Part shown: positions 12,164 through 60,983 of the stretch, piece by piece
How the letters are laid out: the number at the start of each line of letters is the position of its first letter
How positions within the stretch are numbered: position 1 is the stretch's first letter
Source of the DNA: Eledone cirrhosa
Taxonomy: Eukaryota
Reading direction: 5' to 3'
Length of the DNA stretch: 64,000 bases
NCBI GenBank assembly: GCA_964016885.1
Contig: OZ024740.1
Location: 285,820,001 to 285,884,000, forward strand
The notes under the pieces: generated by a model
The model's database searches: none
Told to the model about the DNA's origin: nothing
The model's input: the letters and a program-made list of their open reading frames with translations, nothing else
Program-made: the position numbers and the translations under genes

Positions 12164-12796
12164 AAATGCTGAGGGGATGAATTCATAGATGTAGGATGCT
12201 CAAACATAGAAAATAACTGCAAGTACAGTGAGTTGCTATAAAATAGCATATAAAAACAGGGTAATGACCCTTATAGATGGAAAAAAAGTTGCCAGCAGTT
12301 GCTATGAGGGATCAAACCTTGTCTCTCAGTTACTGAGTGCTCCCACCATTGAGCTAAAGTATCTCTGACCATCTAAATTAAGGAGATGAATCAAACAGCT
12401 TTTGATAATGTAGCCAAACATCATGTGTAAAGCTCAAACTGTTGAACTTACGAAATGCTGAGGGAATGAATTTATAGTAGCAACTGACTGTATTTGCAGT
12501 TATTTTCTACACAAGAGCATCCTATACCCATAAATTTCAGCATTTCATAAGTTTGGAAATTTAAGCTTCACACATTCTCAAAAGCCGTTTGATTCGGCTC
12601 CTTAAGATGTTGTCAGAGGCCCCTCAGCTCAATGGTGGGAGCACTCAGAGAGAAATGAAGTTCAATCCCTCGTAGTGACTGCTGTAAATTCTTTTTCCAT
12701 CTCTAAAGGTCCTTACCTTATTTTTATATGTATTTATAACAACTGACTGTACTTGCAGTTATTTTCTACACCTGAGCATCCTACACCTTCTATAAA
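12164..12796. mobile_element. Inverted pair of circularly permuted ~260-290 bp units with tRNA-like segment and decayed hammerhead-like motif
   Basis: Left copy 12164-12477 has a terminal direct repeat (AAATGCTGAGGG..ATGAATT.ATAG at 12164 and 12453). Right copy 12478-12796 is the opposite-strand homolog with its own direct repeat (CAACTGACTGTA.TTGCAGTTATTTTCTACAC at 12481 and 12740). Both contain AGCTCAATGGTGGGAGCACTCAG...GTT(C/T)(A/G)ATCCCTC. Confidence 0.7.
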
Positions 12797-15420
12797 TAAG
12801 TATATTATGAATTATATTATAGGCACAGGCTTGGCTGTGTGGCTAAGAAATAGTTTACTCTGGAATCACACGGTTCAATTCCACTGTGTGGAATCTAGTG
12901 CAAGTGTCTTCTACTATAGCCTTAGGTCAACAAATGCCTTATGAGCACATTTGGTACATGGAAACTTTAAGGAAGCCTGTCATACACGTATTCAATCACA
13001 CACTCACATGCACATTGAGATTGTTTATAAAAATGGCAATATTTTTTATGTTCCCCATAAACAATGTGTTCTGAAGCATAGTAATTTGACAAATATTAGA
13101 GGTATATATATACGATACTTAGAAAATAGAGTATGGATTGACATCAGGAAGATCATTTGGCTGTAGGAAATCTGCCTCAAAAAGTTTTATCTCAACCCAT
13201 GCAAGCATGGAAAAGGCAGGCATAAAAATGACGATGATGATATTTTGAATAATATTATTTTGTAATATAAATATAAACATAAATTATATACTGTGAACAA
13301 CATTATTTATAATGTAAATATATTTAATTTGAAAGAAAAAAAAAAGAAAGAAAAGTATTGAGTTAAATTTTTTAATGATAAAATATATTATTCTTATTTA
13401 AGATTTATTTTTGTTCCCAGAGCTTAGATTATATAACCAACCACTTCTTAGTTTAATCTATTATACCTCCATTGTTCTTGTGAATGTTAAAACCTAAAAG
13501 AGCATTGACCTAGCTGGCTAATTTAGATTGTTATATATAGCACTGGAATAAGATTTCTGACCACTTGAAAATAGAGCTAAGAACCACTTGACTGAGTTGT
13601 GGTTATAGATGGACAAATAATCTTGATATAATTGGGTAAATATATATAAACACACACACAGTTTCCATAGGATGGTTATCTTGTACACCACCTACTTTAA
13701 TCTTATACAGCAGGCAACTATAACTTTCAAAGTTATTATAAATGCTTGGCCTCACAATCACTGATGTTGATATTGTTGTTTAGTTCTAGGTTAGCTCTGA
13801 CTATGCAAACCTTTGCTCAAATGCATTCCAGATATGACCATCCCATTTTTTTTTGCTATGTGCAGGGAGGGAACCCAACATCATGTTATCCAATGTAGTT
13901 TTTTTCCAAACTGGTGGGGTGTGATTTGAGGGAGATTTGGCTGCTATTTCTAACAGGTCAAGCAACCATGTAGAAACCCTCTTGTTGGCTCATCCCAATC
14001 ATTAATGATCTCTCATAGCAATCTTGCATTCATAACAGCAAAAATTGGGTCCCATAGATTAGTTCTTTTCTTCGGGGTCTGAAAACACAAAGCTTAAGTA
14101 AGAGTCACAATGAAATACTACCTCTGTTACTACACACTTCAACATCAGAGGCTACACACAAAAGAAAGGCTATTGATTTGGACACTCACTCAACAATGCA
14201 CCACAACCTCTGAACCATAGATGCACTGACTCTTCACTCTTCTTTTTCTACTGATACTATACTGACCTTTACCACTACTACAAAGGCCAGTTTTATGTAG
14301 TTTTGTATCAAAAGGGTTAACCCATGCTTCAAAATAAACAGCTTTGTACCAGGGCATTTGATACCATTTGATACCAGCATTTGATACCAGGGGCAGTTTC
14401 AGGTGGTTTGATATCGAAAGGGTTCATAACCCTTTTGAGACAGAACCACCTGAAACTGTCCTTGATGACACAAAGCTGTTTATATTATCTAAAAACCTTC
14501 CTTCATAATTTTATGTAAGAACATGTTCCAAACACCAGTTTAATAATGAGATTCCTGATTATTTTCAACATTTTTGAAAAATGTTAAGCAATGTCTTTTG
14601 TTAGAAATATGGTAACCAATGCATTAAACCCCCTTTTTTTCTATGCCAGGTTGGCATCTACAATTTGCCTTCAATATTTTTTAGAGTTTCTTCTGTTTTA
14701 TGCCTTTAGTTTAACTCTTAACATTACATAAAAAATGTTCAGAACAATCTATCTACTAGTAATAATAATATTAACAAACCCGTTTTTACATATTTTCTAC
14801 TAAATCATTACTGGACGTTAAGAGTTGATAATCAGTACAATTATATTTTTACATGTATGCACTTTTTACCACTCAAACAGAAAAGTAAACAATGGTGGGA
14901 ACAGAGGCATAGCAAGGGAGTGAAAGGTAGGGGTGGGTAAAAAGTGTCACAAAGTTTCCTATATCTTATTATGCCTGTTAATTAAGATGGAGCATCAAAA
15001 GTGTCTCTACTCCCAAGCACTGAGAGCCCTTGCTTCATCAGAGGTGAACTTGTTTTCAGTCAAGTAAACTGAAGCAAGTAAAGTTGTATGACTTTCTCAG
15101 AGACTTCACAATACAAGCTAACAAAGAAACCTTCACATGATAGCTCGATTGGCTAGAATCAACAGCCAAATCTCCCTCATATAACATCTTATTGTCTGAT
15201 TTAATCAAGGATACACTGAATAGTCTTACATTATGTCTGAATAAAAAATTAGATTGTCATGACTGGAACAAGTTTGGTTGTATAGGTCAACTTGACCAGG
15301 GCAAACCTGTGGTTAAACAACAACATAACAGTAAGTATTTGAACATCTTCACATTTGGTCATTTGTCTAGCATTGTAACCTCACAATCACTGCTCCACTT
15401 GCAAATAATAATAATTATTA

Positions 15421-16960: not shown

Positions 16961-17569
16961 TCATTTATTTCTGAATGGCTTGATATTTCTTGTATTGATT
17001 TCTCAAGCACAAGCCTGTTTTCTACAAGAAACCTAGTGCTCTTAGGTATCTAGCATGCCATCTAGAACGGAAACTGACAGACTGTACTAACCCATCTTTC
17101 CCATGCCAGCATGGGAAACAGACTTCTGAAAAAGTTGATGATGATGATGGAGCGACAGACTCCTAGTCTTCATTAAGGCATCTCTCTAGAAGGTCACCCT
17201 GATATAAAACCTGCGACTTCATTTGCATCCAATGATTTAGATCAGTGCTACTTTTTGGGTAACTGCATTTGATGTTCAGAGAGCGTGATTGGAGCCGTGC
17301 AAAGCCTTTCCTCACTTACAAAAGCTTCAAGCATAGGCACCGCTTGATGTGACATTTTTTGTGATGCATGGTATTGCTGGCCATAGGCAAGTCCCTAGCA
17401 GGACTAAAAAGGACTAAAAAGCCATGTCCATGATGCTCATGCTTAAGTATCAAGCAATGGCATAACTTGAAAACAAGTTGCAGCCATCATTATATACATT
17501 ATATACATATACATATACATTATATACATATACATATACATATAAATACGTTTACCAATATATATATCA

Positions 17570-18847
17570 GGCAAAAGTACCACAGACGCTCTTTTCATTG
17601 TACGACAACTACAGGAGAAGTACCTAGCTAAAAGTAAACCCCTATACTTAGCTTTCGTCGACTTGGAGAAAGCCTTCGACAGAGTCCCCCGTTCCATTAT
17701 CTGGTGGTCTCTTAGAAAACTAGGTGTTGACGAATGGCTTGTGAGAGCTATACAAGCCATGTATAAAGAAACAGTCCGTAAGGTTAGAATTAACGACGAA
17801 TATAGTGAAGAGTTTAGCGTAAAAGTTGGTGTCCATCAGGGCTCTGTTCTTAGCCCCCTACTATTTATTATTGCCCTTCAGGCTATAACAGAGGAGTTCA
17901 AGACCGGCTGCCCATGGGAACTCCTATACGCAGATGATCTAACGCTCATAGCTGAATCAATGACCGAACTAGAGAAGAAATTCCAAACATGGAAGCACGG
18001 CCTAGAATCAAAAGGCCTTAAAATTAACCTGGCTAAGACTAAAGTTCTAGTTTGTAGGAAAGAAAATAAGGCGGCAGTCCCATCTGGAAAATGGCCATGC
18101 TCAGTGTGTAGGAAAGGCGTAGGTAGAAACTCCATTTTATGTCCCAAATGCAAAGTATGGGGGCATAAAAGATGTAGTGGGATCACAGGTAAGCTAACTA
18201 AGAACATAGATTTTACATGTGGCCGGTGCTCTGGTGCAATAAGTAGCAGCAAGTGCCCACAAAATACTAGCTCCTTCAACTGCGCAGAGGGTTCTATAGA
18301 AATAGTGGACAGCTTCCGTTACCTGGGCGACAAAATCAGCAGTGGGGGAGGGTGCTCTGAAAGTACAGTAGCTAGAGTCAGAACTGGATGGAAAAAGTTC
18401 AGAGAGCTTATACCACTATTAGCCGCTAGAGGGTTCTCCCTAAAAATGAAAGGCAGGTTATACGATGCCTGCATACGAACAGCAATGCTGCATGGCAGTG
18501 AGACCTGGGCATTGTGTGCAGAGGACATACGCAGTCTAGAGAGGAACGAAGCTTGCATGCTCCGCTGGATGTGCAATAGTAATATACGTGAACGGCAAAG
18601 CATAAACGAACTAAGGAAAAAATTAGAAATAAGAGGGATCAGATGTTGTTTACTCGAGAGAAGGCTACGTTGGTACGGTCACATGATGCGCATGAAAGAC
18701 GACAGCTGTATAACAAAGTGCAGGGCAATAAAGATAGACGGTAGCCACGGAGTAGGCAGACCCAGAAAAACATGGGACGAGCTGATAAATTCCGACCTCA
18801 CACGCTTACACCTCTCCAAGACAATGTCACTGGACCGAGACCTTTGA
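17570..18847 (+). pseudogene. RTE-type reverse transcriptase (partial ORF) with internal PHD-like zinc finger
   Basis: Open frame GKSTTDALF..LAFVDLEKAFDRV, GVHQGSVLSPLLF, LLYADDL, KINLAKTKV, FRYLG, MLHGSETW, RRLRWYGH, GRPRKTW. TGA at 18845 is likely a mutated TGG, since paralogs read DRDLWRHAV, giving an ancestral stop at 18883. Confidence 0.92.
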
Positions 18848-19930: not shown

Positions 19931-19983
<53 letters not shown>

Positions 19984-20014
19984 AAGTGGTAACACAACAG
20001 TTAGTTCACCATAC

Positions 20015-20055
20015 CGAGAACAATTGTTTCACCTTAGCAGCAGATCTTCAGCTCG
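20015..20055 (-). ncRNA. Minimal type I hammerhead ribozyme motif (CUGAAGA core)
   Basis: CGAG-CUGAAGA-UCUGCUGCUAAGGU-GAAAC-AAUU-GUU/CUCG: 4-bp stem I, both core boxes, palindromic stem III ACAAUUGU, GUU cleavage triplet. Stem II is weak. Confidence 0.65.
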
Positions 20056-20127
20056 CAATGGTCATGGTTATACGGAACAGGAAGGACATGCGGTTGTTCT
20101 TCCTGTTCCGTATAACCATGACCAGTA

Positions 20128-20165
20128 TGAGCTGAAGATCCGCTAAGGTGAAACAATTGTTGTCG
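20128..20165 (+). ncRNA. Mirror hammerhead motif with disrupted stem I
   Basis: UGAG-CUGAAGA-UCCGCUAAGGU-GAAAC-AAUU-GUU/GUCG; the first stem I pair is a G.G mismatch. Confidence 0.45.
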
Positions 20166-20273
20166 GTATGGTGAACTAACTGTTGTGTTACCACTTCTAC
20201 CTAACTCGTCCCATGGACTGAGTGCTCTACCACTATGGATATTACCTTCCAGTGTTCTACCCCTATCTCTCTC

Positions 20274-23875: not shown

Positions 23876-24484
23876 TAGCTTATGCTGCCTAGATGATCTA
23901 ATTAATAGTGGAAGAGAGTGCTCTAATAGCATAGTAGTTAGATTAAGGATAAGATGGAAGAGGTTTAGAGAGCTACTCCCTCTGTGGACAACAAAAGGTT
24001 TCTCCCTATGAATGAAAGGGCAGTCATATGACACCTGTGTGTGAAGTGCTATGTTGCATGGCAGTGAAGCATAGGCAGTGACTGCAAAGAATATGCATAG
24101 GCTGGAGAGAAATGAAACAAGCATGATTCGATGGATGTGCAATGTTAATGTGAGAGAATGGCAGAGCTTGGATGAACTGAGAGAAAAACTGGATTTAAGA
24201 GTAATCAGAAGTAGTGTTCAAAAGAGAAGACTGCGTTGGTATGGACATGCGATGTGCATGGATGATGATCGCTGGGTGAAGAAGTGCCTGGAAATCCCAG
24301 TAGAAGGAAACCACAATAGAGGTAGAACAAAGAAAACCTAGGTGGAGGTGGTGAGAACTGATCTCAATTTGTTGAAACTCAGAGGAGATAACAACGAAAT
24401 GCAATGACTGGGAAGATGCTGTGCTAAAAGGGACCCGTCCAACCCTTGCAAGTGGGGAAAAGTGGACATAGAAAATGGTGATGA
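23876..24484 (+). mobile_element. Degenerate RTE LINE 3' fragment
   Basis: Translation homologous to the 17570 RT C-terminus (RWKRFRELLPL, RLERNETSMIRWMCN, RRLRWYGH, RGRTKKT) with stops, followed by the CCCGTCCAACCCTTGCAAG...GTGGAC...GATGA tail. Confidence 0.85.
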
Positions 24485-46311: not shown

Positions 46312-46355
<44 letters not shown>

Positions 46356-46447
46356 CTGGGCAGTTATATCCGTAGTTGGTAGAGCACTCAGTCCAAACGA
46401 TGAGTTCAGTATCGAGTTAGTTCCACAACAAATTAGCAAACCATAAA

Positions 46448-46484
46448 CGAGGACGCGCGTTTCACCAGATGGATTTTCAACCCG
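46448..46484 (-). ncRNA. Minimal type I hammerhead motif, U3-A8 core variant
   Basis: CGGG-UUGAAAA-U-CCA-UC-UGG-U-GAAAC-GCGC-GUC/CUCG: 4-bp stem I including one G.U, 3-bp stem II, palindromic stem III ACGCGCGU, GUC triplet. Confidence 0.65.
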
Positions 46485-46537
46485 TGTATGGCTGCAGTGA
46501 GAACAGATTATATTTCTGTTCTCACTGCAGCCATACA

Positions 46538-46574
46538 CAGATTGAAAATCTGTCCAGTGAAACATGCGTCCTCG
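46538..46574 (+). ncRNA. Mirror hammerhead motif (U3-A8), stem I decayed
   Basis: CAGA-UUGAAAA-U-CUG-UC-CAG-U-GAAAC-AUGC-GUC/CUCG. Confidence 0.4.
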
Positions 46575-46626
46575 ATTATGGTTTGCTAATTTGTTGTGGA
46601 ACTAACTATATATATATATATATATA

Positions 46627-46840
46627 TAGTAATAATAATAAATTTGAAGACTAAAATCCAAAGAGGGCTCGATAAGGATAAATATATATCAAATATATAA
46701 GAACCGTAGAGCAAATATTTATTAAAATAACAGATTAAAGTTTGAGCGAAGAATCGCTGCTTTCACCCTTAACGGGATCTTCAGAAGATCCTGTTAAGGG
46801 TGAAAGCAGCGATTCTTTGGTTAAACTTTAATCTATTTTA

Positions 46841-46847
<7 letters not shown>
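46627..46847. mobile_element. PLE-like element ending in a fold-back (46715-46847) centred on a hammerhead CUGAAGA box
   Basis: Apex GGATCTTC-A-GAAGATCC. The minus arm reads CUGAAGA-U-CCC-GUUAA-GGG-U-GAAA followed downstream by AATAAA. Flanked by (TA)n. Confidence 0.65.
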
Positions 46848-46908
<61 letters not shown>

Positions 46909-47702: not shown

Positions 47703-50700
47703 ACGAGTTTGAAGAACAGGCTAGAAAAGAGGGTTAGAAGTTTTATTATAGTTTATATATAAATTTATCGTTTTAGGAAGTTCAATTTGATGCTATTGAT
47801 AATTTTTAAACAAAAAAAGGGAATGTCTTTTTTGTTTCTTCTTGCTATCTTAATTTAATCTGCAAACTACTGTGAAACTAATGTGATGTTGGATAATAAC
47901 AAATATATATGAATCACTTTCAATTGAAGTTTTAATGGTTGGCATTAAAAAGGTCATCTGACTATTTATTCTGGTAATTCAAAGGAAGATATCCAAATGT
48001 GTAGAACCCATTAGTGTAAAGTACCAAATCAAATGTTTGAAAATAATGAAATATCTTCTACATTGACTAGATATTGTTAAACAATAATGATGCTGTAAAT
48101 TTATGAACTTTAGTTTCCAATCATTGATTTTTGTAAAATATACATGAAACTTCTTTTCATAAAAATTGATCTAAGGCTTCATGTGTAAAATGTAGAAGAA
48201 ATCAAATATCAAGCTTCTATATTTAAATAATATTGAAGATGTGTTAATAAAATCTGGTGTTTAATAGTTAATAAAAGAAATAAACCAAGAAAATGACAGC
48301 TTATTTCCTTTCGTTAAATAATCTGGACTTTTATTTCTAATATCTAAGCTAATTATATATTAAAGATTTTGATAGAACATTAGAATTTATACATGATGTC
48401 AACCAAACTAAAGACTAATCCATTCCAAAGGCGGTCTTTCTGTTGGTTTAAATATAGTTTGTTTAAATAGAAAATATATAAAACCAATGATAAAGATTAG
48501 GTTAAAACTTTTTGATAATGGCTAAAGTGAAAATATCATTGTCAGTCGATGTATGTGTATTATTTTAAAATTATAAGTCCATATAAAACAACTACACAGA
48601 GTATGTCATAATTAGCTAACTGTTAAGATATGTGAATAAAAAAAATTGCAGTGATATTAGACTTTATTCCAAAATTAATAGGTAGACAGTTCATTAAATG
48701 ATCAAAATGCTGCCTGTTTGCAAGCATGCCATTACTTTGTTTCTTTGTAATCAGTAAGCTGACTATGGCCCACCTTATATATAGCTATAATAGTGTAAGT
48801 TGTTGTTTAGCATTAGGTTAGTCTTTATTGAGTAAAGTGCCAAAGGAGTTCCATTCGTGACCATCAAATTCTTTTTCCATAGTTTATCTAGAACTGTACT
48901 ATTTTTTGCTGGTGAAGCTACAACACATAGAGGCTCCTTCATTGGCTTGATAAAGATGTAAGTTATTTTGATTGTTAGATATGTAATTGGTGGATGTGAC
49001 CAGTTAAAATCAAGAATTTGCCAGCTATAAAAGTAATTTTCTAAAGTTACATATAGTATCTCAAGTGCTGTAGATTACAGTTGCATCAGGATAAATCATA
49101 TCTTTAATAAAAAGATACAGTAACAAGAGAAAAGAATAGTACAAGTTGAGGTATTCAAAGTAAAGAAAAAATAGAAGCAAATAGAACTAAGATAAATAAG
49201 CCAAACAACTGATAAGATTAAGTATGCAAGTTATCTATTTTTATCAAATATTGTCTGTGGGTGTGTGTCTGTAATAATTGTCATTTGATTTTATCTGTTT
49301 GTTTTTTTCTCATTTTCCTTATATGTATATGTGAATGGGTTGGACATGTCTTGAAGACAGTATTTTTCTAACTTCTTGATTCTGTTCACTTCAGCCTCAA
49401 AGATGTTATGATAGTGGGTTTCTATAGCTGAAGATCTTTATTGTCACTTCATTGTTTTGATATGTGTATGATGTGTGGTAGATGTTACTGTAAGCTATAC
49501 CTATTTGTGGAGCTTTGGAATGGTTTGGATAACTACTTTCTGGACAACTTTTGAGTTTACAAAGATATCCTACTTCTTAATGTTTGAAACAGCTAATGGT
49601 TAGAATGATTTTAACTCTTTCATTACCAAACTGCCTGAAATAGTTCTATGATAAAACTGTTTATTTTATAGTGTTTATATTTATCTAAAAATTTTCCATC
49701 ATAATTTTATGTAAGAATCTTTAAGTTATGTTCCAAACATTAGCTTAATAAGGAGATAGTTAATTATTTTACTAAATAGCTCAAAATTCTTGATTATATC
49801 AAAAATTATTTGAAAATTATAGACAGTGTCTTCCATTAGAAATATAGTAATAAAATATAACATAATTGTTCATCACTCTAAGGTTAACACAATCAAGATC
49901 TGAGTTTGCCAAGCTAGTCAATAAAAGAAGCTTGCCTCAAGGACTTCAGTGAAGTTAATGGAAGATCTCTCAGAACAGAACTAATCGTATCAAGTTCAAC
50001 TCTTTTCATACTCAATGAAAAGAGTTTATTAAAGAAAGATATATAAAGATGTTCTGAGATTCAGTTTATCTAAGGCTTTTCTAAAATGATATGCTGGTTC
50101 TGGTATTTTTGGCTGTCATATCATGAGTTGGCTTTCTCTATCTTCCTCTTAGTACTTTCTATACTATTTCATAATTTGCTTCTGTATAACAGGCAAATTC
50201 CTAGGATATACCCTTATATAAACATGCATATATGTTAAGGTATGCATGTATGTAGCTATTATACTTATGTATTTATTATACACACTATATATTTATTAAC
50301 CCTTTCATTATTATATTTCTTATGAAGAATCTTTACTAAAATTATTAATTATTTCATTAAGATAGTATTTGTAACATAACTTATCGAAAAGTTTTTATAT
50401 CAAATTATGTTGGAAAGTTTTGATTTATATGGGAACCCTTTAAAATGATTCATTTTGTTTCACATAAATAGGCAATTCTGAGTAGGTTGGTATCAAAAGG
50501 GTTTAAAGTTTTGCTGCAAACTGATATTAAACATTATGTTTAATTTACCTATACAGTCTGGTAAATATTTCTGTACTGGTTTTTATTTAACTAGTTTTCA
50601 GGTTATCTAACTTATTACATAATTGATTAGTTTAACATTAGATATACACTTAGTAGGGTAATATTAACAATTTCATTTTTAATTGTCTAATCTGTTAAAA

Positions 50701-57877: not shown

Positions 57878-58197
57878 GACCTCCCATGGGTACAAGCTGA
57901 AGCATATAGACAATATGTCCCCACTCCCGCCACCGCAAGGTGGTCGTGGAGGTACCACGGCAAAAAAGCACCCAGCCCACACTGTAAAGTGGACGTGTAG
58001 GCGCCACGAAAAAGCACCCAGCACTCACTGTAAATGAGGTTGGTGTTAGGAAGGGCATCCAGCTGTAGAAATCAAGCCAAATCAGTTCCTGTATGAGCAA
58101 GGCATGGTCAGCCGACCAGACACTGCCCACAACAGGACAACCCTTCTAACCCATGCTAGCGTGGAAGAACGGACGTAAAATGGTAATGATGATGATG
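57878..58197 (+). mobile_element. RTE 3' UTR copy
   Basis: Near-identical to 45655-45926; ends GGACGTAAAATGGTAATGATGATGAT. Confidence 0.75.
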
Positions 58198-59550
58198 AAG
58201 ATATTGGCCAACCCAAGACACTTACCCAAAGTACTGCACATTGAGATTGAATCTAGGAACCATGTGGTTGCAAAACAGGCTTATTTCCTACAGCCATCTT
58301 AATGCACCCATTGTTGGGTACACCCCCTATTTTAATCGATTACTTTTTCTTTGTGTTTTTATTTACAAGATCTAAATTATCATTATCCATTTCATGCCAA
58401 GGGACATGGCAACCCCCTAGTGCTGGTAACATGATGAAATGCACTCACCACACTGTGTAAAGTGGTTGATGTTTGGACAAGTATGCAGCTGTAGAACCCC
58501 CCCCCCCCCCAAGAATGTACTTGAGTCCAACGCGCCAAGGAGAGTAGTAAATCAGATACAGTCTGTAATTACCCATCCAACTCATTCTGACATAGAAGAA
58601 AAGATGTAAAATAATGATACTGATGAGGATGATGATGATGATGAACATAGTCACTTTTAATACAGTTGTTTTCCTTCTAGCAATAGAAATGGATATATTT
58701 TGTCTAGCTTTAACTAAATTATGAAATAATATCCATTAGCTGTTCTTCAGCATACAATGGGGGGTTTATCCAAGTTTCTAGGACAATTTTGTTGTGTAGG
58801 ATAATTTAGTTTTGTTTTCAATGTATTATTTCTACTTAATACAATTCATTTGTACTACTACAAACATCAATTTGTTAGGTTTTGCTGTTGGTGTCCTTAA
58901 AAGAATCACATGTTCAACAAACAAGAATTGATTTATATTTTGCTTTCTCTTTGATGTAACATTTATCTAGTTTCCATCTTTTTTTTTATAAATTTTGATA
59001 TGCATGTACGTATGTTTGCAAGCATTTTTGTGTGAATATTTTCACATGAACTTATGTATGTATGTATGTATGTATGTATGTGTGTGTGTGTGTATATATA
59101 TATGAAAATTGAATTGGATTAGTAGCTTTCACTGTAGTTTTGACTGCAGAAAATGGTGATGTCCATTCTGGAAGCTTATATGCCCTGTTATTATTAGACT
59201 ATTTTCTGTAGTAGAAAATATGGCGAAAGTTACTAATTCAATTCAGTTTTCAAATTCCATCGGCATCTTCTAATCATGCGATGTGTGTGTGTATGTGTGT
59301 ATATATATATAGAGAGGGGGGGGGAGCAAATAGGTGTTGTCCTCAAGAAGGGCATCTGACTAAACCACTGGCATAAAAAGTTCTGTATAAACCATGTCAG
59401 CATGGAAAACAGAAAAAAGATGATGCTATAAATACACACATATATACATGTATGCTCATGTGTATACATAACACACACATATATACATGTATGCTCATGT
59501 GTATACATAACACACACACGCACAGATATGACCTCTAATAATATACGGTA

Positions 59551-59890
59551 TCATCATCACTGTTTTACATCCGTTCTTCCACGCTAGCATGGGTTAGACG
59601 GGTTGTCCTGTTGTGGGCAGTGTCTGGTCGGCTGACCATGCCTTGCTCATACAGGAACTGATCTGGCTTGATTTCTACAGCTGGATGCCCTTCCTAACAC
59701 CAACCTCATTTACAGTGTGGGCTGGGTGCTTTTTTGCCGTGGCATCTCCACGACCACCTTGCTGTGGGGGGAGGGTGTGGGGGCATATTGTCTATATGCT
59801 TCAGCTTGTACCCATGGGAGGTCGGGTACTCTGTATTACTGCGTGACGCCAGAGGTCACGGTCGTGTGTCATTGCCTTTGAGAGGTGTAA
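59551..59890 (-). mobile_element. RTE LINE 3' end
   Basis: Minus strand LHLSKAMTHDRDLWRHAVIQSTRPP matches LHLSKTMSLDRDL of the 17570 RT, followed by the shared 3' UTR. Confidence 0.8.
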
Positions 59891-60505: not shown

Positions 60506-60548
<43 letters not shown>

Positions 60549-60689
60549 ATATATATATATATATATATATGTGTGTGTTAGTGTATATATATATAATGAA
60601 TGTATATATGTGTATATGTAAGGAAAAAAAAAAGGATGAAATCGAAAATGCAACTGGAGTCTTTTTTTTTTTAAATATATTTATTTGGT

Positions 60690-60729
60690 TCCTTTACCGC
60701 TTTCGCAGTTCTTGTGCTTTTCAAAACTA
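60690..60729 (-). ncRNA. Mirror hammerhead motif (UUGAAAA core), stems I and III partly decayed
   Basis: UAGUU-UUGAAAA-GCA-CAAGAAC-UGC-GAAAG-CG-GUA/AAGGA. Confidence 0.4.
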
Positions 60730-60769
60730 GAATCGAGATGGAGGGTTTGTGTTTCCTCCATCTCAATTC

Positions 60770-60809
60770 TACTTTTGAAAGGCACAAGAACTGCGAAACC
60801 GGTAAAGTA
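60770..60809 (+). ncRNA. Minimal type I hammerhead motif, U3-A8 variant (A9G in this arm)
   Basis: UACUU-UUGAAAG-GCA-CAAGAAC-UGC-GAAAC-CG-GUA/AAGUA: 5-bp stem I, 3-bp stem II, palindromic ACCGGU, followed within ~5 nt by AATAAA. Confidence 0.6.
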
Positions 60810-60934
60810 ACCAAATAAATATATTTAAAAAAAAAGACTCCGGTTGCATTTTCGATTTCATCTTTTTTTTCCTTATACCTTCACTCGTGTAAGACACCTC
60901 GTTTTTTTCATTTTGTAAAAAAAAACCTCATTTT

Positions 60935-60983
<49 letters not shown>

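Follow-up and report, generated by a model that had tools for sequence, protein, structure and literature searches.

In the 64-kb stretch of DNA analysed here (the window; positions count from its first letter), a near-perfect palindrome of 257 bp occupies 60619-60875 and carries TA at each outer end. Its left arm (60619-60744, minus strand, 126 nt) and right arm (60755-60875, plus strand, 121 nt) both point outward from an unpaired 10-nt spacer (60745-60754, minus strand). In the arm alignment there are 115 matches, 6 substitutions and 5 gap columns, the latter in A/T runs. The RNA fold of the palindrome reached -167.2 kcal/mol (z -27.6), a stability matched in 0 of 200 shuffles, which bears out the hairpin that a sequence-only reading had placed here. 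A tail of ~61 nt (60876-60936, plus strand) follows on the right side only, and the whole remnant including this tail measures ~320 bases. It lies between microsatellites that presumably served as the target, namely (TG)n/(TA)n and degenerate TA-rich repeats on the left (60508-60618) and (TA)n on the right (60937-60979). The window is AT-rich and microsatellite-rich, contains many short dispersed repeats, and holds no second copy of this hairpin family. One of its other repeats is a SINE-like sequence, of which two copies to the left of the hairpin (58009-58193 and 59550-59734) are inverted, 96% complementary and 1.36 kb apart; the family recurs at 19.0-19.8, 28.4-29.0 and 45.6-45.9 kb.

Each arm contains a hammerhead copy, at 60770-60809 in the right arm (plus strand; descriptor search and family letters) and at 60690-60729 in the left arm (minus strand; sequence and family majority letters). 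The plus arm has the layout of a type I hammerhead: the core spans 60775-60781, with U3 at 60775, A8 at 60780 and G9 at 60781; stem II pairs 60782-60784 with 60792-60794 (3 bp); GAAA at 60795-60798 includes G12 at 60795; and the palindromic CCGG is followed by UA, as in the family majority, with U16.1-A17 at 60803-60804 and a predicted cut 3' of A60804. As claimed earlier, this arm is intact apart from A9G, a change that lowers hammerhead activity. The minus arm, also as described before, keeps the UUGAAAA core with A9 (predicted cut 3' of 60695) but has lesions in stems I and III; both are private to this arm and lie at 60727 in helix I and at 60700 in helix III, the latter breaking the palindrome. 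The letters private to the plus arm are G9 at 60781 and T60808. Helix II opens with G10.1-C11.1 and has 3 bp in either arm. A longer helix I formed through a 2-nt bulge, noticed by eye, was discarded, as the family often has a variant at 60767 that disrupts its pairing.

Taken alone, one arm is only modestly above chance as a hammerhead. A descriptor allowing at most one core mismatch, with stem I of at least 5 bp, stem II of at least 3 bp and a palindromic helix III, matched the window once, whereas 60 shuffled windows averaged 0.07 matches, or 0.22 with stem I of at least 4 bp. With a stricter core and looser stems, the descriptor matched 49810 instead, outside any fold-back. That match (plus strand) has a perfect U3-A8 core and a 2-bp stem II, lies within a dispersed repeat at 49611-49856 and may be due to chance. 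Single arms folded no better than shuffles (z 0.8, -0.44, 0.03 and -0.32). Rfam returned 0 matches at gathering score in the 64-kb window. With the E cut-off relaxed to 10, the surroundings of the locus gave 20 matches, all below gathering score and none of them a hammerhead. Most of the Rfam models matched were of miRNA precursors; a miRNA was rejected, as these models match the hairpin shape and all stayed below gathering score.

We next turn to the family to which the arms belong. Four of seven public runs listed, none of them recorded as RNA, were matched to 60750-60935 at 80% likeness. Family records amounted to 2,778 contigs in run X1, 2,468 reads in RAD run X5 and 2,895 reads in RAD run X6; the source of these three runs is the window's species or a relative (35% of words shared). 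Run X4, from a second organism that shares 15% of words with the window, gave 0 family records. Contig depth and RAD reads do not equal copy number, and RAD reads over-weight few loci; the thousands of matching contigs and reads nevertheless indicate an abundant family in the organism of X1, X5 and X6. Scans with family patterns found 0 loci in metagenome contigs (two patterns), viral contigs and prokaryote genomes. We found no paper on this repeat family, although Repbase or Dfam may contain it; the portions of the octopus-repeat literature bearing on it (PMC13282606) make no mention of hammerheads or hairpins, and the relevant part of PMC7151607 holds nothing decisive for the family.

The U3-A8 minimal hammerhead with A9 is a trait of this family. 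At 60781, A accounts for 99.8% of X1 depth, 1,447 of 1,525 X5 reads and 1,643 of 1,674 X6 reads; with 95-99.8% agreement, A9 is the family letter. U3 is unchanged in all variants listed, and A8 is changed only in 111 of 1,673 X6 reads, from three starts. At 60785, G, which adds a fourth stem II pair, is found in 82% of X1 depth, 723 of 1,529 X5 reads and 1,014 of 1,678 X6 reads; with these shares (82%, 47% and 60%), a 4-bp stem II is the commonest family form. Against this, the non-pairing U at the same position reaches 7%, 32% and 28% in X1, X5 and X6. A minority C60785 is common to both arms, which indicates that they had one template. At 60808, the minus-arm letter G holds 99%, 91% and 95% in X1, X5 and X6; T60808 is therefore private to the plus arm, and helix I of the family has 3 bp (CUU/AAG). 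The complete hammerhead assembled earlier from the two arms was thus right in its core and A9, and the family majority keeps U3, A8 and A9, whereas the 5-bp complementarity of its stem I is absent from that majority.

Two common variants within the motif are C-to-U changes. One affects C11.1, in 18-23% of RAD reads and in 83 contigs; the other replaces the second of the two Cs in the helix III palindrome, in 10-11% of RAD reads. G-U pairing is kept in both cases. Counts per kind of change leave at most one G-to-A change among five further variants, so that the matching G-to-A changes are not both common. This pattern hints at selection on the sense RNA, although the RAD reads over-weight few loci. 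Stretches of the arm outside the core are also well conserved, and core conservation alone is therefore no proof of selection.

Family reads and contigs resolve two classes of 3' end. The first stops at 60868-60875 and runs straight into (TA)n (23 contigs, 289 X5 reads and 276 X6 reads); the left arm likewise ends straight in (TA)n without a tail. The second continues into the tail at 60876-60935, covered in three of the four runs, with common letters at 60879 (74 X1 contigs) and 60892 (63 contigs). Because other contigs share these letters, the ~61 nt to the right of the palindrome are a one-sided tail belonging to the family. One RAD locus, represented by 221 X5 and 224 X6 identical reads, has a shortened tail with sequence other than (TA)n behind 60900, which is either flank or a continuation of the element. 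On the other side, upstream of 60755, family sequence continues in 41 contigs, 253 X5 reads and 413 X6 reads, with an agreement of 0.63-0.78. The spacer, read on the minus strand, resembles this upstream sequence by eye, suggesting that the left copy is ~10 nt less truncated at its 5' end. At the hairpin turn there is a microhomology of 3-4 nt.

The hairpin centre looks copy-specific, with non-mirror upstream sequence elsewhere and no strand-change joint listed, in reads that under-sample hairpin centres (numerous RAD reads stop at 60765, and contig assembly breaks off at hairpins). The only joint listed in family reads is a 54-nt skip in one contig, with no strand change and no go-back. Read ends accumulate at 60765; a ribozyme or element boundary was considered there and rejected, as the position falls on an AATT site in RAD libraries; 85-92% of the reads spanning 60765 lack that site.

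At the locus, (TA)n lies no more than 70 nt away on either side of the hairpin; under this cut-off, chosen after the locus had been seen, 322 of 20,000 random intervals show the same. The arrangement holds for three of four hammerhead-like hairpins in the window, two of them beside a common run, and none of 4 other fold-backs tested has it. In such TA-rich microsatellite flanks, no target-site duplication is readable. The AATAAA at 60814-60819 (plus strand), in an AU-rich stretch 3' of the hammerhead, is internal: 56 nt separate it from the short end and ~115 nt from the long end, and the window has 3.3 such hexamers per kb. The published consensus of the minimal hammerhead (min-HHR) includes AU-rich sequence on the 3' side (PMC4209133). 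The earlier argument that AATAAA is the poly(A) signal of a pLTR end finds no support in this internal placement and hexamer frequency.

The four hammerhead-like hairpins in the 64 kb have tails of 60-85 nt. Besides the one at 60619, fold-backs at 19982, 46415 and 46715 have hammerhead-like cores and adjoin (TA)n. Only the minus arm of 46415 (U3-A8) passed the relaxed descriptor; 19982 and 46715 read C3-G8 by eye. No similarity of the 60619 hairpin to 19982, 46415 or 46715 was detected, the scores being matched by 117, 156 and 135 of 300 shuffles, and MAFFT agrees with this test in leaving the core of the 60619 family unaligned with the other three. By contrast, the local score between 19982 and 46415 was matched by 0 of 300 shuffles, and these two are related. 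The earlier statements that the 60619 hairpin is unrelated to the 19982/46415 family, and that U3-A8 is used by at least two families here, are both upheld.

Several properties of these other fold-backs were recorded along the way. The one at 19982-20198 directly follows (TA)n and has a 14-nt spacer, a C3-G8-like core in both arms (by eye) and a ~65-nt one-sided extension to about 20264, while that at 46352-46607 combines a U3-A8 core with a one-sided extension of 63 nt. U3-A8 in 46415 and C3-G8 in its relative 19982 amount to an apparent covariation of positions 3 and 8 within one family. The 46415 arms also differ by paired stem II changes, which opposite decay of two CpG sites can explain. 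On the opposite strand, the tails of this family (46352-46414 and 20199-20264) look like a tRNA 5' half with a D-arm-like motif; ARAGORN reported 0 tRNAs. The fold-back at 46715-46848 has a 1-nt spacer, ends in (TA)n, has by eye a core of C3-G8 type and a poorly defined helix III, and is weakly similar to 19982 (3 of 300 shuffles). An older fold-back at 12181-12797 (617 bp, 72% arm identity) is not beside (TA)n and has no hammerhead match.

Open reading frames were surveyed as stop-to-stop ORFs of at least 70 aa, which number 145 in the window. Pfam was run on 72 of them, taking in all ORFs of 58.4-64 kb except five frames over the microsatellite at 62 kb. No RT or GIY-YIG ORF of a Penelope-like element (PLE), upstream of the hairpin or elsewhere, was present among these 72 of 145 window ORFs. 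All matches above cut-off, an RT and a PHD finger, fall in one ORF, and the sole RT is thus a 433-aa frame at 17546-18844 (plus strand, E 5e-26), which is followed by a PHD finger, has no GIY-YIG match and lies 42 kb from the hairpin; we take this RT and PHD frame to be RTE-like. A fragment 69% alike to this LINE-like frame lies at 23907-24295. For a truncated copy, the absence of a PLE ORF is expected. Counting against a PLE end, the sense strand of arm and tail has no ATG, whereas some pLTRs overlap an ORF start.

The locus is probably a single insertion, now dead, that derives from the 3' (pLTR) end of a high-copy PLE family, or of a non-coding derivative of one, with a minimal type I hammerhead of the U3-A8 kind. 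It consists of two head-to-head copies of the family end that differ by ~10 nt in truncation, one of them tailed, set between TA-rich microsatellites. Three PLE traits are present: an inverted 5'-truncated copy at the 5' junction, an optional one-sided tail of ~61 nt, and insertion in (TA)n, as in targeting of the Neptune/Naiad type. Direct partial-tandem pLTRs are absent from the hairpin locus, and other loci are visible only to read length. The family sequence seen upstream extends for only 30 nt, which speaks against this explanation. The sequence-only reading had proposed a PLE pLTR end from the hammerhead and its poly(A) signal; the layout fits that proposal, and that of a TIR element does not, but the poly(A) argument fails and the 72 of 145 ORFs scanned hold no PLE ORF. 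Since no PLE ORF was found, the label draws on layout and literature and membership is inferred. We conclude that the locus has the workings of a PLE end that carries a minimal hammerhead, and that membership is likely, though not proven.

Of the competing explanations, the one that survives best, though improbable, is a short non-coding hammerhead retroelement, similar to a non-LTR retrozyme or a SINE, that never had an ORF, used PLE protein in trans and was inserted here in truncated, inverted form. It would account for the very many short copies and for the lack of a detected ORF or a nearby ATG, and retrozymes, which bear type I hammerheads, have been put forward as pLTR derivatives (PMC7229834; bioRxiv 10.64898/2026.07.22.740005). 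They are, however, head-to-tail tandem arrays, whereas the locus is inverted and no go-back joint is listed, and the tail and the (TA)n target are PLE traits. Mechanistically this explanation overlaps with that of a PLE end. Less room is left for a TIR-type miniature DNA transposon (MITE or fold-back element) that moved to TA by cut-and-paste as a whole hairpin, with an incidental hammerhead. Near-perfect palindromes with TA ends are routinely annotated as MITEs, and the 257-bp palindrome with its outer TA has just this appearance; yet what follows the right-hand TA is family sequence present at just one end (74 and 63 contigs), and other copies continue into non-mirror sequence upstream of the centre, with no strand-change joint listed where centres are under-sampled. 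A TIR transposon with a target-site duplication, named earlier as the outcome that would count against a PLE end, is thus at odds with the one-sided common tail and the non-mirror upstream copies. It is just as implausible that the hammerhead arose by chance within an AT-rich repeat belonging to some other class: a single match for one arm against 0.07-0.22 expected per window, no folding excess of single arms and no Rfam hammerhead up to E 10 would allow it, but the family letters improve the motif at A9 and the fourth stem II pair, the unrelated hairpin family 46415 has the same U3-A8 core, and UUGAAAA is the core of a published PLE-linked min-HHR, Schistosoma mansoni(4) (PMC4209133).

If the locus is a PLE end, its history may have run as follows. 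The element's endonuclease would have nicked (TA)n DNA, and reverse transcription would have begun at one of two sites, the tail end or the CCTTA end, and stopped ~120-190 nt later. The new DNA may then have folded back on the 3-4 nt microhomology and copied itself, yielding the palindrome, after which neutral decay would have added about three private substitutions per arm. In the source element, the hammerhead would cut when tandem copies form a dimer by way of the palindromic helix III, or with the help of protein. At the locus itself cleavage is not expected, as the copies lie on opposite strands and each is mutated. In either direction the antisense arm would be transcribed first and the motif would be buried in ~120 bp of dsRNA; in the full plus-strand hairpin, the predicted pair probabilities of the hammerhead helices are 1e-20 to 1e-38. 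The hairpin copy is best read as dead, and the locus most likely has no function, although read-through could possibly yield dsRNA.

The family adds to the high-copy animal families with a U3-A8 minimal hammerhead, and its natural variants lend themselves to tests of core tolerance. It also implies that, in animal genomes rich in microsatellites, hairpins that look like MITEs can turn out to be PLE ends, a point of importance for repeat annotation. A broader and rather unlikely idea is that in this genome various PLE families, unrelated to one another, mostly leave behind near-perfect hairpins of their hammerhead-bearing ends that lack an ORF, some of which might re-mobilise as units. If true, there would be a fold-back class of non-autonomous PLE derivatives that is easily mistaken for MITEs; such hairpins would silence their own ribozyme, and the host would gain long dsRNA in large supply, as a substrate for A-to-I editing or a source of small RNAs.

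For PLE ends, both the U3-A8 variant and opposite-strand pairs have already been published (Cervera and De la Pena 2014, PMC4209133). That account describes U3-A8 min-HHRs in the pLTRs of Cercyon PLEs of S. mansoni (~1,300 hits), with a consensus helix I of 3 bp, opposite-strand pairs 100-700 bp apart, and low activity that is seen only as dimers. Natural U3-A8 covariation is also reported, with in vitro activity cited, in PMC3088659. The present family resembles the Cercyon min-HHRs in its type I layout, U3-A8, short helix I, G10.1-C11.1, palindromic helix III, and U-rich 5' and AU-rich 3' flanks; the Cercyon copies, too, are mostly solo, truncated and in opposite-strand pairs. In helix III the loop is palindromic and 2 nt long, a form also shown by the shrimp and fly examples of the same paper. 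Unlike Cercyon, the family has a stem II of 3-4 bp rather than 6-8, no extra base after A9 and no ORF found here. G10.1 directly follows position 9, and the absence of the extra base typical of min-HHRs speaks against a PLE min-HHR; some sequences in the published alignment likewise lack that base or have it incorporated in the stem (PMC4209133).

With regard to insertion, the closest counterparts are the endonuclease-bearing PLEs, for which an inverted 5'-truncated copy, a one-sided tail of 30-40 bp and a (TA)n target (Neptune, Naiad) are described (Craig et al. 2021, PMC8557442), and whose head-to-head palindromes have been read as self-priming (Arkhipova et al. 2013, PMC3846280). The locus shares with them the head-to-head inverted 5'-truncated copy, the palindromic junction, the one-sided tail and a (TA)n target without a readable duplication. 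It differs in that the insertion consists of two inverted ends alone and in that the tail is ~61 nt, against the published 30-40 nt. As Naiads lack canonical hammerheads in that description, a Neptune- or Penelope-type parent appears likelier. In the Poseidon PLE of Anolis, the tail corresponds to the distance between two RT start sites, and a hammerhead near the end cleaves only with protein (Frangieh et al. 2024, PMC11167929). Ends with and without a tail, an AT-rich target and a hammerhead near the end are common to Poseidon and the present family, whereas the Poseidon core is C3-G8 with the ORF start in stem II, and here it is U3-A8 with no sense-strand ATG. Finally, non-LTR retrozymes (PMC7229834; bioRxiv 10.64898/2026.07.22.740005) are likewise non-coding, abundant in animals, linked to PLEs and equipped with a type I hammerhead, but they form direct tandem arrays that give circular RNAs, where the locus described here is an inverted pair.
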